A stretch of 64,000 nt of DNA. Origin: a virus (taxonomy: Duplodnaviria; Caudoviricetes). The number at the start of each line of letters is the position of its first letter. The stretch's first letter is position 1. Made by a program: the position numbers and the translations under genes. Under the pieces are notes generated by a model. The model was not told the origin of the DNA, searched no databases, and saw only the letters and a list, made by a program, of their open reading frames with translations. Below are positions 4,846 to 35,700 of the stretch, in pieces. The DNA lies in the IMG/VR virus record IMGVR_UViG_2974630879_000001, positions 12,336-76,335 of that record. One strand, given 5' to 3'.

Positions 4846-5256
4846 ATGTCTGAGAAGAACATTTTCGAGCAAGCCACTCGTGCTGCTGCTCGATTCCCTT
4901 CGCCGGTTGGTGATCTCTCAACTGAGCAACTGTGGTCGCTGCCCTTGACTTCGCTCAAGGGTGCTGACCTCAACGGCATTGCTGTGTCCGTCAACCGTGA
5001 GTTGAAGGCACAGGGCGAGGAGTCCTTCGTGGACACCAAGCCGAATGCCAAGTCTGCTCTCCTGGCTCTGAAGCTCGATGTGCTGAAACACATCATTGCC
5101 GTCAAGCAGGCTGAGAACGCCGAGAAGCTCGACGCTCAGCGTCGTGCAGCGGAGATCGCCAAGATCGAAGAGATCCTCGTGTCGAAGCAGACGGACGCCT
5201 TGGCGTCGAGTTCTGTCGAAGACCTGGAAAAGCGACTGGCAGAGCTGCGCAAGTAA
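4846..5256 (+). CDS. conserved phage coiled-coil protein, 136 aa
   Basis: AAGGA RBS, 9 nt after the previous stop; helical and charged C-terminus. Confidence 0.8.
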   Translation: MSEKNIFEQATRAAARFPSPVGDLSTEQLWSLPLTSLKGADLNGIAVSVNRELKAQGEESFVDTKPNAKSALLALKLDVLKHIIAVKQAENAEKLDAQRRAAEIAKIEEILVSKQTDALASSSVEDLEKRLAELRK

Positions 5257-5267
5257 TACCGTTTTAT

Positions 5268-5437
5268 GGATTACCTAGGTGTGCAACAGTGGAACGCTTG
5301 GACAATAGCTACGTCTGAGTTAGGTCATTCGAGCGGGATCGGCCCGTACCAAGAAGCTGCCAAGACACTTACCGCAACACCGTCCATGGGGGTGAGAATG
5401 TGAAGGATGAAAGCGGCTTTCACTAGGTAATCCGCCA
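5268..5437 (+). ncRNA. oversized tRNA-like RNA A (170 nt, G-CCA end)
   Basis: Perfect 11-bp terminal stem GGATTACCTAG (5268-5278)/CTAGGTAATCC (5423-5433) followed by G-CCA; internal hairpins; AT at -2/-1. Confidence 0.6.
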
Positions 5438-5445
5438 TATGTAAG

Positions 5446-5471
5446 GGGGCCACTCAATAGGGAGTGGCCCC
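5446..5471 (+). other. 10-bp perfect hairpin immediately 5' of the hammerhead
   Basis: GGGGCCACTC-AATAGG-GAGTGGCCCC; no U-tract follows. Confidence 0.7.
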
Positions 5472-5473
5472 AT

Positions 5474-5523
5474 GCCAATCTGATGAGTCCGTTAGGACGA
5501 AACACACTCTGTGTGTAATTGGC
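5474..5523 (+). ncRNA. type I hammerhead ribozyme
   Basis: GCCAAT-CTGATGA-GTCC(GTTA)GGAC-GAAA-CACAC(TCT)GTGTG-TA-ATTGGC: complete core with three paired stems; predicted cleavage after GTA at 5517. Confidence 0.95.
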
Positions 5524-5864
5524 TGTTTGAGATGAAAGGGTGCCACCCTGGAATCAATATTGTTCAGCCCGTCGCCAATGCGATCATTGGCTAATTCAGC
5601 ACTGAGGATGTGCTGCACCTGTTCAGTACCCTCGCAAGGTACGTTGAACCAGGGGACGCAAGTAACCCTTAGAGGCGTGTATAACCGGGAGTCTAAATCC
5701 GGTGCTGTGTCCTAATTCACAGTGAGTTGATACCAAATAGAGAAGATTAGGCTCGCTTGGTTAAGCACTCGTAGACTTGGCAACTACATACACGTCTCGC
5801 CTTCATATATTTGAGGTAGCAACCCACTTGTGCTCTTGTACAAGATAGTCTAAGGTTGCTGCCA
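5524..5864 (+). ncRNA. putative large structured RNA between the hammerhead and the first tRNA
   Basis: Many 5-11-bp helices, including 5672-5682/5788-5798 and 5815-5824/5854-5863; no credible ORF. Confidence 0.5.
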
Positions 5865-5873
5865 CAACGCTTT

Positions 5874-5949
5874 CGCGGGATAGTTCAGTTGGCAGAACAC
5901 CGGACTCATAATCCGGATGTCGTCGGTTCGAATCCGACTCCCGCAACCA
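5874..5949 (+). tRNA. tRNA-fMet: tRNA-fMet-like (CAT)
   Basis: 76-nt cloverleaf, C1:A72 mismatch, anticodon CAT at 5907-5909, T-loop TTCGAAT, encoded CCA. Confidence 0.93.
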
Positions 5950-5956
5950 GTTTCAT

Positions 5957-6042
5957 GAGGGTGAGTAGCTCTGGCGTGGCATCGGCCATCAACTAGCTGG
6001 AAGCTCATTAACGTCAGAGTTGAGTTCCTGAGACCTTCGCCA
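5957..6042 (+). pseudogene. degenerate tRNA-like element (86 nt, G-CCA end)
   Basis: Six-bp acceptor GAGGGT/ACCTTC, G-CCA, bulged T-arm with loop TTGAGTT; poor D and anticodon arms; same GTTTCAT leader as tRNA-Ser. Confidence 0.55.
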
Positions 6043-6046
6043 GTTT

Positions 6047-6128
6047 TGACCATCTCCCTGTAAATTTCAGTGGAGGCGTCCCTGCCAGCTCACGACCGTG
6101 AGTGGAATTCGCATCAGGGGGATGGTCA
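6047..6128 (+). ncRNA. putative 82-nt structured RNA closed by a 14-bp stem
   Basis: TGACCATCTCCCTG (6047-6060)/CAGGGGGATGGTCA (6115-6128), one G-U pair; inner hairpin CTCAC-GACC-GTGAG. Confidence 0.5.
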
Positions 6129-6131
6129 TCT

Positions 6132-6207
6132 TGTGGGATAGCTCAGTTGGTAGAGCATTGCCCTGATAAGGCAAGGGTCACTGGTTCGAGTCCAGTTCCT
6201 ACAACCA
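6132..6207 (+). tRNA. tRNA-Ile: tRNA-Ile (GAT)
   Basis: 76-nt cloverleaf; anticodon arm TTGCC-CTGATAA-GGCAA; T-loop TTCGAGT; CCA. Confidence 0.96.
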
Positions 6208-6215
6208 GTTTCAAT

Positions 6216-6266
6216 GGGCGGCGCAGATTTGCTCTTTGTGGGTTTAATTCCCATGGCTGTCCACCA
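6216..6266 (+). ncRNA. 51-nt acceptor/T-arm minihelix with alanine identity elements
   Basis: Acceptor GGGCGGC/GCTGTCC (G1-C72, G2-C71, G3-U70), A73, CCA; T-arm GTGGG-TTTAATT-CCCAT; only 14 nt in place of the D, anticodon and variable arms. Confidence 0.65.
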
Positions 6267-6279
6267 GCTCTTTGACAAT

Positions 6280-6365
6280 GGATCGGGTTATCAGATGGGC
6301 GCTGAGGCAGACTGTAAATCTGCCGTCTCAGGACTCGCTTGGTTCGACTCCAAGCTGATCCACCA
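6280..6365 (+). tRNA. tRNA-Tyr: tRNA-Tyr (GTA)
   Basis: 86 nt; GCAGA-CTGTAAA-TCTGC anticodon arm; long variable arm; T-loop TTCGACT; CCA. Confidence 0.93.
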
Positions 6366-6381
6366 GTCAAACACGTTTCAT

Positions 6382-6467
6382 GGGTTGTTCCGCCGTATGG
6401 ACGGCAAGCGGTCTTGAACACCGTGGCATCCGAAAGGTTGAGGGTTCGATTCCTTAACAACCCGCCA
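6382..6467 (+). tRNA. tRNA-Ser: tRNA-Ser (TGA)
   Basis: 86 nt; GCGGT-CTTGAAC-ACCGT; variable arm with GAAA loop; G73-CCA. Confidence 0.93.
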
Positions 6468-6474
6468 TAGCTTC

Positions 6475-6551
6475 ATGGGATTAGCACAGCTTGGTAGTGC
6501 GTCTGCTTTGGGAGCAGAAGGTCACAGGTTCGAATCCTGTATCCCGTACCA
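6475..6551 (+). tRNA. tRNA-Pro: tRNA-Pro (TGG)
   Basis: 77 nt; TCTGC-TTTGGGA-GCAGA; T-loop TTCGAAT; CCA. Confidence 0.95.
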
Positions 6552-6553
6552 AA

Positions 6554-6849
6554 TGAACTTGTAGGAGTAGGACGAGTACAGTCCTGAAGCCGTGCAGCGG
6601 TCTTACTACAGGCATAGCCAGATGGCTGCACTACATCTTGGCACTTGTTCAACTATTGCTGGTGGACCAGCGTAGGCACTCAGCGAACCTGTACTGCCGA
6701 GTTTTCATGGTATGGAGACATAGTTGTTCGAACTGCTACCACATGTACTTCCCCTCGCCGACAGGTCAGACACGGGGAGCTACCATCTCAGGGCAAATCC
6801 CTGAGGGTGAATGAAGATAGATGCCTTCAAGGCATGCGGATAGCAGTTC
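6554..6849 (+). ncRNA. putative structured RNA between tRNA-Pro and tRNA-Thr
   Basis: Perfect 9-bp 6730-6738/6841-6849 closes a three-hairpin junction; a second junction is closed by 6558-6564/6606-6612. Confidence 0.45.
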
Positions 6850-6860
6850 CTTTTCAATAT

Positions 6861-6936
6861 GCTGCCTTAGCTCAGCTGGGAGAGCACCTGCCTTGTAAGC
6901 AGGCGGTCCACAGTTCAATCCTGTGAGGCAGCACCA
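6861..6936 (+). tRNA. tRNA-Thr: tRNA-Thr (TGT)
   Basis: 76-nt cloverleaf; CCTGC-CTTGTAA-GCAGG; CCA. Confidence 0.96.
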
Positions 6937-7105
6937 AGCAGCGGTAGTTATGGGTAACTACCAGTGGTGCGACACTGTTACACAATCCAGATTCTAGATA
7001 CTGGCCGTGTCAAGCAAAAACACAAATGGGAACCCTTTGAGTAACGCCGAGTCCTCATCAGAGAATCAGGCCGTTGCGCTGATCAGCGTTAATCTTCAGC
7101 ACTAT

Positions 7106-7180
7106 AGGGGAATCGTACAGCGGTCAGTACCCCAACCTTTGACGTTGGTAACCTTGGTTCAAATCCAAGTTCCTCTTCCA
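7106..7180 (+). tRNA. tRNA-Gln: tRNA-Gln (TTG)
   Basis: 75 nt; CCAAC-CTTTGAC-GTTGG; T-loop TTCAAAT; CCA. Confidence 0.93.
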
Positions 7181-7191
7181 ATTCTTTTTAT

Positions 7192-7351
7192 GGTGTGGGT
7201 GCGATCAGAGACATCTGATAGCTTCCATAATGCAACTACGTCTGCTTGCAGGCTAGTGAGCTTCTGTACGACATTAGTAGTTGGCTGTTGCAGCCTCACC
7301 AACGTTGTCAAGTACAGCATGCAGGTAATCAATCCTGTGCCTACACCGCCA
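7192..7351 (+). ncRNA. oversized tRNA-like RNA B (160 nt, G-CCA end)
   Basis: 9-bp terminal stem GGTGTGGGT/GCCTACACC plus G-CCA; four arms in cloverleaf order; shares CTACGTCTG with RNA A at a similar offset. Confidence 0.62.
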
Positions 7352-7358
7352 TCTCAAT

Positions 7359-7408
7359 GTCGCCCTGGGAACTACCGGAAGGGTAGTCTTCCGCCTGGGG
7401 CGGCTCCA
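7359..7408 (+). ncRNA. 50-nt hairpin RNA ending in T-CCA
   Basis: 11-bp stem GTCGCCCTGGG/CCTGGGGCGGC followed by T-CCA; AT at -2/-1. Confidence 0.5.
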
Positions 7409-7411
7409 TAA

Positions 7412-7915
7412 AGACTGGATGACTTCATCCTTCAAGACGGTCTATAAATGTCCACGAAGGGTAGTTTGTCCCTACTAGAACGGGATAGTCAGTTGTGAGT
7501 CCGAATTCTTTAATACGAACTCTCCGTGCATACAGTTGCAGGATTTCAAACACGTAAACTACCAGAACCTGACAGATGTAGTCCTTGAGGCTGCATCTGG
7601 GAATTCTTCCGCAAGTTAGTGACTGACGGTGTAGCTATCGCGCTGCCGTAAAAACATTGTGAGACCTGAGAGGGAGGTGATATCACCCACGACGGTCGGC
7701 GAACACTAGCCTGATCAGCTAAAAAGCTAGGAGAATTTCCAGATGTTGCTTCAACAAGAAGAGCGCATGGCTTATCAACCATAACGCATAGATGCTTGGC
7801 TTACCTAAGCAACATCGTCTACAGACCCACTTTGCTGAGTGCTCAACAGAGAGCCGTAGCTTCCGAATGTGATCCCCTGTCACGGTAGAAGTTATGCGGA
7901 GTCATGATCCGGCTC
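7412..7915 (+). ncRNA. putative ~500-nt structured RNA
   Basis: Uninterrupted 17-bp helix 7593-7609/7730-7746, 8-bp 7460-7467/7556-7563, 6-bp 7851-7856/7910-7915; no credible ORF. Confidence 0.5.
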
Positions 7916-7925
7916 AGCTCCCCTT

Positions 7926-7960
7926 AAAAGCTCAGACATTCGTCTGGGCTTTTATTTTTT
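7926..7960 (+). terminator. intrinsic terminator closing the RNA island
   Basis: AAAAGCTCAGAC-ATTC-GTCTGGGCTTTT followed by ATTTTTT. Confidence 0.85.
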
Positions 7961-32700: not shown

Positions 32701-35700
32701 AACTACGACCCTTAACATCAGTCGTGGTCAAGTAGTTGCCCATGATTACATTGTACTGCTCTTGCGCATAGTAACGAGCAGCCTGTGGATCGACAGGATT
32801 CTCAGGCATCAAATCATCGACCGTCATGTTCTTGGTGACGTGAGTAAATAGTTCTTGAGCCTTAGCCAAAGCATTGGCATCAAGATCGATACTCATCGTC
32901 ATAGCCGTCGTCAGATGACGGAACAATGCAGCTTCCTGCATGGTCATGGGGAAGCCATGAGCATTGACCATTGCAGTTAGAGCACTGGAATTACGCAGTG
33001 CATCTTGCAATTCCTTACGACGACTCTGGCCACTATGCGGATCAACACGAACACGCACATAGTCAGCAACCTTACGCATGAAGGTCTGTTGCAAAGCAAT
33101 CAACCGATCATTGTTACCAAACAGTGGATTCTGGAACAGAGCCGTATCACGGACACCATCAGCAATAGTCGGTGACGAACGAATGATCACTCCAGTGTTG
33201 AACTGAAGAGTGCTCAACGCATCGTCAGCAATTGCTGGTGCTTTCTTCTTGCCCCAGAACAATTGCTTCAGGAATTTCACAACATCCTTAGCCATTTGAA
33301 CCAAGGAGGGTGATTGCTTCGTCTTGAGGTTTTCAGTCAACTGCTCATTGGTCAATGCCCAAGCCATGAATTCATTGAGTGCCTTGGCCTTAGCCACAGC
33401 ATCAGTGACATCAAGATCAGATTGAGCTTCAGTGATGACAGCCTGTGCAGTAGTCACAGCAACTTCGTTGCTCGTGTCCTGCATGAACTGATCCATCAAA
33501 CCTTCAATACGAACAATGGCATCAGCCACTTCAGGAGAAGAGTTACCCTCGTAGTGAGCAAGTACCTTTTCGAAAGTAGTGGCATGCACCTGCTCATGGA
33601 TCAATGTTTCAACTGAAGCGTTGTAGAGGTAGATGGTCTTATCAGCAACGACAGTTGCACCCAGCTTGTCTCGCGGAGTGATGATCTTGCCAGTTGCATT
33701 CTGGTAAGCAGCAATCTGCTCAGCATTACCAAACACAACTTGCCAATCCTTCATAGACTGAGAACGCTGGATCTCTCCGAAGATGACCTTCTGAGCATCC
33801 GTCATCTCAACCATACGGCCAAGATTCTGTAGAGCCGTGTACGACAGCACACGTGCACCAGACTTGTGAGCACGACCCACTTGATCCAAGGGGGCTGATA
33901 CAGCAGCCACAGGTTTTGGGGTGACAGTAACGACACCACGCTTATCTCGTGCAGCCTTATACGCTGCCTGCAATGCAGCCAGTGGATCATCAACCGGAGC
34001 AACACCATTGCTATAGGGGGCACCCGCAGCAGCCATCTGGTCAACTGAGTTGGCTACAGCTTGTCGTGCAGTGATTCGATCAGCAGCAGATTCGGCAGAC
34101 CATTTGAGATTCAGGCCCAGCTCTTCCATTGCAGCTTGGACGGCAGAGACGGTGTGTACTTCGTTCCTTTCCAGACGAATGCCCAGAGCGCGGTATAGCT
34201 CAACCAGCATCTCCTGTGAAACATCATCGAACGAAACATTCTTGCTGAACTTGACCCAAGAGTCATTGACAGCAGCCAAAGGATTACCCTGCCAGCTCTG
34301 GTAAACAGCCTCATTGGCTCGACGGCTATAGTCCATCAGACGATTGTCCAATGCGATGTTCATACCATCGAACACTTTCAGAGTGCCCTTGAGCTTTGCA
34401 TTCGCAAGGTACTGCATCATCCGACCATCGCCAGAACCAATGGTCATGAAGGCAGCACCAGCAACACCAGCATTCGCTGGGCCATAGATGTAGGCATCAG
34501 TGCTCATGCGGCTGGCCTTAATCAGACCACGACCAAACTCTGACGCACCAACGTCAGTCTTTGTAGAACCAGCAATGTAGAAACGCTGTGCACCGGTATC
34601 AATCAGAGGAGCCAGAGTCTCCAACTTCTTGTAGATACCACGCAGCTCAGCCTGACTGAGGAACTCAGTCTTCTTCCAGTTCGGATCAGCAGCAGCCTTG
34701 GTTTCCAGAGCAGCAGCAACTTCACGCTTAAATGCATCTTCCAGGAAAATCGATTGGACTTGCGTTGCACGACGAAGGACTTCAACAGCCTTCATCATCG
34801 GCGCACCGACACTTGCAGTAATACCTTCCCGCATAGGTGCAACGAACAGATGCAGCATGTTCTGCTGAATGTTCTTGATCTGATCCGAGTTGAATTGGAA
34901 CTCGACAGGATCAGCCATGTCCACACGCTTGGTCGGAGCATCATCCCACTTGATTCCGTTCTTGGTTCGAACAGGAACCACAGAAGTCAGCTCATCCATA
35001 GCAGCATAGAAAGTATCGAGCTTCTGCTGTGCATTGACATCGTTCACACCGAACATGGCCTGAGCCATGGAGATGGAACTATCAGCCTTCTGCATCGTGG
35101 CGACAGTAGACAGTCGCTCGTAGATCTTCTTGATCAGTGACTGAGTGACATTGCCTGCAATACCATTCGCACCAGAACCATAGATGGTAATGGTGAGCGG
35201 ATTCTTCAGTGCACCACGACCAAGAGTCAGTACACCAGTCTCATTGTCGAAAGTGATGTCGTTACCAAAGAACGCATCCAGCACAGTAAACAGTCGGTTG
35301 ATCTGATCAGTACCGTACTGATCATCAGCCAGTTCCTTACGCAGTGAGTCCACAGCCTTGGCTGTCTCATCCGTAGACGCTTGATAGAGATCCTTCGAAT
35401 CAATGCTAGAACGGATCTCGTTAGCAGTCGTTGGTGCACCAAAGGTGACACCACCCTTACGCATGTTGTTGACCCACTGCTCACTGAAGTCACCAATCGT
35501 CATCAAGCCCATGGCATTGATTGGACCATTGGTCATACCGTCTGCTTCGAGATACAGGGAAGTGGTGAACTCACCACGATTACTGTCATCGAGACGAGCG
35601 TACTCACTCAGCGAATGCAGAGCAGCCGGAGTCATATCTGCACCAACAGCCTTGAAGGTGTTGAGCAAAGTATCGACATCGGTCTCATTGAGAATGTGGC

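Follow-up and report, generated by a model that had tools for sequence, protein, structure and literature searches.

What does an N4-like phage encode in the 160 nt that follow its last tRNA gene (RNA B; positions 7192–7351, + strand), a segment predicted to close on itself, to carry arms in tRNA order and to end in G-CCA? The original prediction saw in it a tRNA-shaped scaffold that may be serylated or may act as a decoy for tRNA-targeting defence nucleases. The window, the whole 64,000-nt stretch that was analyzed, corresponds to bases 12336–76335 of an IMG/VR virus record of 76,335 bp that carries direct terminal repeats, and covers most of the ~76-kb genome of an N4-like, Pokkenvirus-related phage (Schitoviridae). 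The closest isolates belong to the genus Pokkenvirus (Xanthomonas virus PB119 and the Stenotrophomonas phages Pokken, Paxi, and Piffle), none of them a close relative: the 136-aa protein whose gene immediately precedes the tRNA region shares 67% identity with its PB119 counterpart and 54–55% with those of Pokken, Paxi, and Piffle.

RNA B lies in an RNA island on the + strand (5257–7960), bounded by a stop codon at 5256 and by its single intrinsic terminator (7925–7960), described as strong, with no credible ORF in between and no sigma-70 promoter found within it. In the island, ARAGORN identifies seven tRNAs of one orientation (Met, Ile, Tyr, Ser, Pro, Thr, and Gln), all with an encoded CCA and including a normal tRNA-Ser (6382–6467); several helix-closed modules lie alongside them, and RNA-coding sequence other than the tRNAs accounts for ~1.9 kb of the ~2.7 kb. 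RNA B is the unit directly after the last tRNA, tRNA-Gln, on the same strand and upstream of the terminator. The 11-nt spacer that separates RNA B from the CCA end of tRNA-Gln (7181–7191) ends in AT, placing a U at −1, and this junction (AT at −2/−1, then G at +1) is the same as in tRNA-Tyr, tRNA-Ser, tRNA-Thr, and tRNA-Gln and is also common to the other CCA-ended modules of the island. Four ORFs overlap RNA B, the longest of which extends through tRNA-Gln, and none had a match in Pfam or PHROG.

Four further modules in the island (5268–5437, 5957–6042, 6216–6266, and 7359–7408) have paired ends followed by a single unpaired base and CCA, with AT in front of each and modest fold z-scores (−1.1 to −3.1). 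In the 51-nt module at 6216–6266, the stem comprises 7 bp and includes G3-U70, position 73 is an A, and a UUUAAUU loop caps a T-like arm. At the head of the island (5474–5523) there is a hammerhead-ribozyme core, consisting of stem I (GCCAAU/AUUGGC), CUGAUGA, stem II (GUCC-GUUA-GGAC), GAAA, and stem III (CACAC-UCU-GUGUG), with GUA before a predicted cut after 5517; in Rfam it received only a sub-threshold Hammerhead_3 hit (5459–5508, 25 bits, E = 0.026, gathering score 48.5).

Folded with ViennaRNA, the 160 nt of RNA B adopt a five-helix MFE structure at −58.8 kcal/mol. Its ends are joined by a 9-bp acceptor-like terminal helix, GGTGTGGGT (7192–7200) × GCCTACACC (7339–7347), 2 of the 9 pairs being G-U, with pair probabilities of 0.92–1.0 in the isolated 160-mer; the 5′ strand (GGUGUGGGU) begins with the first base of the unit, and the 3′ strand (GCCUACACC) is followed by a discriminator-like G7348 and the encoded CCA (7349–7351). 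At the D-arm position, arm 1 (7201–7222; GC / AUCAGA-GACA-UCUGAU / GC, p = 0.77–1.0) has 8 bp, a G-A mismatch, and a 4-nt loop that lacks the GG of a D-loop. A 9-nt single-stranded junction (UUCCAUAAU, 7223–7231), unpaired in both the MFE and centroid structures and with no antisense target in the window, leads to arm 2 at the anticodon-arm position (7232–7261), where GUCUG-CUUG-CAGGC is extended by ACUA/UAGU (p = 0.96) and by GC/GC and is capped by a G-C-closed CUUG tetraloop (7245–7248). Arm 3, at the variable-arm position (7264–7317), is a 54-nt irregular hairpin with a base of CUGUAC/GUACAG (p = 0.93–0.98) and an apex of GGCUG-UUG-CAGCC. Arm 4, at the T-arm position (7321–7338; GCAGG-UAAUCAAU-CCUGU, p = 0.9–1.0), has 5 bp and an 8-nt loop without the UUCRA consensus, and adjoins the 3′ strand of the terminal helix directly, such that the two are predicted to stack into 14 bp (9 + 5).

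Every motif that the original prediction named for RNA B is present in the sequence at exactly the position given, and the proposed terminal stem with G-CCA, the arm 1 hairpin ATCAGA-GACA-TCTGAT (7204–7219), the CTGTAC/GTACAG closure of arm 3, and arm 4 (GCAGG-TAATCAAT-CCTGT) abutting the 3′ strand all recur in the MFE fold with pair probabilities of 0.9–1.0, the value for arm 1 being ~1.0. Four of the five proposed helices have probabilities >0.9; the fifth, an arm 2 formed by TGCAA/TTGCA around a 10-nt loop, exists as a motif, but its pairing has a probability of ~0.01 and the CUUG hairpin forms in its place. The statement that no canonical anticodon loop or TTCRA occurs was borne out as well: all three body hairpins are capped by loops of 3–4 nt (GACA, CUUG, and UUG), the fourth loop is UAAUCAAU, and a 7-nt anticodon-like loop, the D-loop GG, and a UUCRA T-loop are all absent from RNA B.

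The reading that competes most seriously with a tRNA-like RNA is that no discrete RNA exists and that the structure is a chance fold in a 780-nt 3′ trailer (7181–7960), which would either take up a different overall fold or be degraded. The MFE z-score of RNA B against dinucleotide shuffles is −2.86 (4 of 200 shuffles were as good), and when the same measure was calibrated on 110 arbitrarily chosen coding windows of 160 nt from this genome (mean z = −1.27), 11.8% reached z ≤ −2.86. The stability of the fold is therefore unremarkable, within the background of the genome, and on its own says nothing, as the chance-fold reading would have it. Chance was also gauged by counting, in shuffled 2.7-kb islands, helices of ≥9 bp (≤2 G-U) followed by NCCA; these are common (0.64 expected per shuffled island), a further point for a chance fold. 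Adding an abutting 5-bp hairpin with a 6–9-nt loop lowers the expectation to 0.036 per shuffled island, and additionally requiring a 5′ end 5–20 nt after one of the seven tRNAs lowers it to ~0.0015, a post hoc figure obtained by arithmetic from these counts. Against a chance fold, then, finding the helix together with NCCA, the abutting hairpin, the 11-nt register, and the AT|G junction is expected only ~0.0015–0.036 times, and it is unlikely that the design features and array register of RNA B are an accident. Flanking sequence cuts both ways: the probability of the terminal helix falls to 0.83 in 370 nt of context and to 0.04 in 850 nt, the latter as expected were the trailer to fold as a whole, but co-transcriptional folding would favor the local helix at the 370-nt scale. 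Taken together, the case for more than chance is supported only in part, the internal arms being without independent support, and a chance fold is retained as a possible, if on balance doubtful, explanation.

Searches for relatives of RNA B returned nothing. Assignment to a known Rfam family had been named in the original prediction as grounds for giving it up, and Rfam 15 yielded no match on the + strand of 7192–7351 even at E ≤ 10, including tRNA (RF00005) and tRNA-Sec. ARAGORN was silent on RNA B under default settings, with introns of up to 150 nt, and at score thresholds of 70–80%, and an intron-bearing tRNA was accordingly rejected, as ARAGORN made no call with introns allowed. A tmRNA was likewise set aside, with no ARAGORN call or Rfam match on RNA B and a U-A rather than G3-U70 at pair 3-70, as were YrlA/bacterial Y RNA, skipping-rope, and the other tRNA mimics of Rfam, none of whose covariance models matched RNA B. 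A blastn search (‘distant’) of 50,697 phage records detected no homologue, and exact-word scans were equally empty, whether run on IMG/VR with words from the T-arm/3′ end and the arm 3 apex or on GTDB genome contigs with a word from the 5′ end. Synteny searches of IMG/VR with the two upstream proteins recovered only relatives of ≤52% identity with no matching tRNA island; among the loci recovered through a conserved 26-mer located 64 nt downstream of RNA B (8 from IMG/VR and 11 from metagenomes), 0 of 19 contained RNA B; and it is absent from the tRNA islands of all four Pokkenviruses. A covariance model (R1) built from the single sequence of RNA B and run on all of these loci, the whole window, the full PB119, Pokken, Paxi, and Piffle records, and the T4 and T5 tRNA regions identified only RNA B itself. 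By these sequence searches RNA B is an orphan known from one sequence, and its fold consequently stands without covariation support; the absence of a homologue and of covariation, together with the non-canonical loops, is compatible with a chance fold.

Two proposed relationships within the island were also rejected. RNA A (5268–5437), which had been proposed as a paralogue of RNA B, has a 9-mer in common with it (CTACGTCTG, at offsets 41 and 44), but the global alignment scored below the shuffle mean, the local alignment reached only z = 1.1 (85 of 500 shuffles were as good), and the RNA B covariance model misses RNA A. A potential pairing of ACCAACGUUG in arm 3 with the anticodon arm of tRNA-Gln (10 bp, 2 G-U) was judged to be at chance level (estimated expectation, ~0.3).

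The relatives are more informative about the slot that RNA B occupies than about RNA B itself. Downstream lies a conserved element of ~53 nt (7410–7462) whose core (7415–7440) is the invariant 26-mer CTGGATGACTTCATCCTTCAAGACGG; it had no match to an Rfam family. Each of the four Pokkenviruses carries it, as do 19 contigs of N4-like size from IMG/VR and metagenomes, and in every case a stable structure, be it a tRNA, a tRNA-like RNA, or a terminator-like hairpin, comes before it along with an A-rich run. In some of the contigs (L022–L026 and L034), a short hairpin, C-N-CGGA(A/G)AGACG-N-G, often after TGACA, was noted by eye upstream of the conserved element, a candidate for a phage promoter or a processing signal. 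Measured from tRNA-Gln to the conserved element, the length of the slot is 234 nt in the present phage and ranges in the relatives from 85 nt (Paxi) through 344 nt (Piffle) and 366 nt (Pokken) to 425 nt (PB119). In a metagenomic N4-like contig (L029), tRNA-Gln directly precedes the element.

In PB119, the slot is filled by three modules: an RNA of ~200 nt with a long closing helix, a 100-nt expanded tRNA, and a 104-nt helix-closed module, the last with a 10-bp terminal helix followed at once by a 5-bp/tetraloop hairpin (GCUGA-UGCA-UCAGC) and, on its 3′ side, a small hairpin and an ACCA/TCTC end. The expanded tRNA (L001:4651–4750) has 45 nt in place of the 17-nt anticodon arm and scores 49.4 bits with the Rfam tRNA model; it is annotated as tRNA-His in GenBank and receives no ARAGORN call. 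A second expanded tRNA of 98 nt (L036:1470–1567), from a metagenomic N4-like contig, has its anticodon arm replaced by a ~38-nt insert (Rfam tRNA, 41.5 bits). Both keep canonical acceptor, D, and T arms, and both resemble RNA B in strand, in position relative to the 26-mer, and in being non-decoding, tRNA-shaped, and equipped with long inserts; the PB119 example further resembles it in having a G at the discriminator position. The difference is that these RNAs pass the Rfam tRNA model with only the anticodon arm replaced, whereas RNA B fails the model entirely. Non-decoding tRNA-derived RNAs thus recur in the slot, with RNA B the most derived example, and their presence in the slot of relatives speaks against a chance fold. 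In Pokken, the place of RNA B right after tRNA-Gln is taken by a ~200-nt RNA (L010:3431–3648; z = −5.4) with a closing helix of 11+11 bp; Piffle and PB119 share this RNA (related stretches L012:3192–3361 and L001:4452–4645).

The neighboring spacer RNA between tRNA-Thr and tRNA-Gln (6937–7105), which matches no known family, is 85% identical to PB119 L001:3005–3176, where the counterpart sits between tRNA-Met and tRNA-Ile, and 4 of its 37 predicted pairs are changed on both sides with pairing kept. These four compensatory changes indicate that at least one island spacer is a structured RNA under selection. Because this neighbor remains 85% identical in PB119, the absence of RNA B from that phage marks a gain or loss rather than divergence beyond recognition, and it shows that RNA B is dispensable for the group.

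In a third reading, RNA B is the decayed remnant of an expanded tRNA or tRNA-like cassette of the PB119/L036 type that has lost its D- and T-loops and persists as a neutral passenger still cut by RNase P. The expanded tRNAs in the same slot of relatives, the lineage-specific occurrence of RNA B (absent from PB119), and its lack of consensus loops would all fit such a history. Yet no residual tRNA similarity is left (Rfam tRNA, E > 10; ARAGORN silent with relaxed settings), and all five helices are intact with compact, stable loops, including the CUUG tetraloop, where decay predicts otherwise; this origin is considered improbable.

Outside this group, the nearest analogues are the stable tRNA-like RNAs of phage tRNA regions, T4 RNAC and RNAD and the T5 RNAs, known since the 1970s; to our knowledge, none of them has an assigned function. 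In T4, rnaC (species 1 RNA, NC_000866 70908–71046, 139 nt) and rnaD are annotated at the end of the tRNA row, and when folded rnaC possesses an acceptor-like stem, a canonical T arm adjoining the 3′ strand, and two long closed hairpins. RNAC and RNA B are alike in their place at the end of the tRNA row, in their orientation, which is that of the tRNAs, in combining an acceptor-like stem with a hairpin at the T position, and in having long closed hairpins in place of D and anticodon arms and no anticodon. They differ in that RNAC has a T arm of CCGGG-UUCGAAU-CCCGG, a 7-position stem with U-U mismatches, and no encoded CCA, whereas in RNA B the stem has 9 bp, G-CCA is encoded, the 8-nt loop is non-canonical, and the body consists of three arms. 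Reviews and a transcriptome study describe both T4 RNAs as made during infection (validated by Northern blot) and as being of unknown role (PMC3014915, PMC9697503). In T5, RNA1 (NC_005859 30501–30644, 144 nt) and RNA2 (32959–33083, 125 nt) are annotated as ‘tRNA-like stable RNA with unknown functions’; when folded, both give an enlarged cloverleaf of four arms, the T arm being canonical. Like RNA B they are oversized, lie in the tRNA region, and carry their arms in tRNA order, the arm at the anticodon position being enlarged; they keep recognizable D-type arms and canonical T arms (GGUUCAACUCC, GGUUCGAAUCC), neither of which RNA B has.

Measured against this T4/T5 class, RNA B is at the end of a phage tRNA cluster on the same strand and has an acceptor-like terminal helix with enlarged closed arms, at 160 nt against a class size of 120–150 nt, and it lacks the canonical T arm GGUUCRAnYCC (T4/T5 loops, UUCGAAU or UUCAACU). 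No similarity of RNA B to the T4 or T5 stable RNAs was found by sequence or with the R1 model at E ≤ 10, T4 RNAC and T5 RNA1 and RNA2 are not in Rfam, and the T4/T5 stable-RNA ‘family’ is a functional class and not a homology family. A 9-bp acceptor stem also recalls the allo-tRNAs (Mukai et al. 2017, PMC5389517), whose acceptor/T branches are of the 8/4 or 9/3 type and which are likewise connected with seryl identity; the allo-tRNA branch still totals 12 bp, the anticodon loop is retained, and the size is normal, compared to 9 + 5 = 14 bp, no such loop, and 160 nt in RNA B. RNA B is of a kind already known from phages and is itself an unusually derived variant. The original notion of a tRNA-shaped scaffold within the array is upheld by position, register, the U−1/G+1/R-CCA signals, the T4/T5 analogues, and the slot of the relatives, and it falls short in that every test for a tRNA proper failed.

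From these comparisons the preferred reading is that RNA B is a non-decoding tRNA-like RNA, matured by tRNA-processing enzymes and carried as a lineage-specific cassette of the tRNA operon, a proposal that, judged from sequence, stands evenly poised between right and wrong. RNA B would be transcribed within the ~2.7-kb polycistronic RNA island as part of a tRNA precursor and excised by the tRNA-maturation enzymes of the host. For bacterial RNase P, a coaxial helix of acceptor/T type is nearly sufficient as a substrate; the enzyme prefers U at −1, and the P15 loop of its RNA pairs with R-CCA. In RNA B, the cut would fall between U7191 and G7192, guided by the 9-bp helix stacked on arm 4, and the G-CCA tail would be able to pair with the P15 loop. 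Bacterial tRNA 3′ exonucleases stop at a helix-protected CCA, and trimming would accordingly end at the CCA at 7351. As features for both RNase P and the exonucleases are present, RNA B should be excised with tRNA-like ends, and the product would be a stable 160-nt RNA whose ends resist nucleases as those of tRNAs do. A signal defining the 3′ end suffices to explain the CCA without aminoacylation. The three closed hairpins in the D, anticodon, and variable positions would then form the functional body, with no codons read, and could conceivably serve as a protein-binding scaffold for a tRNA-handling factor of the host or as a sponge for it, which is a guess.

What favors a processed tRNA-like RNA is the ORF-free tRNA island with its 11-nt register, terminator, and lack of overlapping coding signal, the combination of helix, G-CCA, and abutting hairpin with the AT|G junction, the tRNA-derived units in the slot of relatives, the T4 and T5 analogues, and the selected spacer RNA at 6937–7105. 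It is weakened by the single sequence without a homologue, the background-level stability, the ease with which helix and NCCA arise by chance, and an 850-nt context that outcompetes the terminal helix. RNase P and other tRNA enzymes contact the tRNA elbow, which is built by the consensus of T-loop and D-loop, and the UAAUCAAU loop and arm 1 lack this elbow-forming consensus; the stack of 14 bp is also 2 bp longer than that of a tRNA. It is in this long stack and in the non-canonical loops that the processing model is vulnerable.

A more specific role, in which RNA B is a working mimic of a tRNA end acting in trans, either charged by a synthetase (e.g., SerRS) for a use outside decoding or serving as an acceptor/CCA-end decoy or sponge against a host enzyme or toxin, is considered very unlikely. 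An anti-defence decoy would soak up a host tRNA-targeting nuclease or a toxin that modifies tRNA ends; the lineage-specific turnover of cassettes in the slot resembles accessory, arms-race content, and the acceptor-like CCA end could mimic the substrate of tRNA 3′-end enzymes. The anticodon nucleases that the original prediction had in mind would find no binding target, as RNA B offers no 7-nt anticodon-like loop anywhere for recognition, and no linked protein accompanies it, which leaves little likelihood for a decoy. SerRS is independent of the anticodon, and G73 and a long variable arm are compatible with its identity rules. The least probable reading is that SerRS charges RNA B through G73, G1-C72, G2-C71, U3-A70, and the long arm, with the seryl-RNA acting outside decoding: G7348 before CCA and the 54-nt hairpin between the arm 2 and arm 4 positions do supply two identity features, but the D-arm consensus is missing and a tertiary core that would orient the long arm is not apparent, that arm is far longer than the variable arms of tRNA-Ser, the stack is 9+5 as opposed to 7+5 in tRNA, the phage already carries a normal tRNA-Ser, and no sequence feature demands charging, the CCA after a helix being otherwise explained, such that the proposed serylation is reduced to a highly unlikely guess.

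As a single orphan sequence from an uncultured virus, RNA B is of limited value in itself. It presents the design of a stable tRNA-like RNA in an N4-like (Schitoviridae) phage, and the related phages exchange different tRNA-derived or helix-closed cassettes in one slot. Were a trans-acting mimic of the tRNA end to prove correct, the turnover of this slot in N4-like phages would mark an arms-race locus of RNA-based counter-defence. If the cassettes are functional, they would constitute phage RNA genes of a class that evolves rapidly and escapes annotation pipelines.
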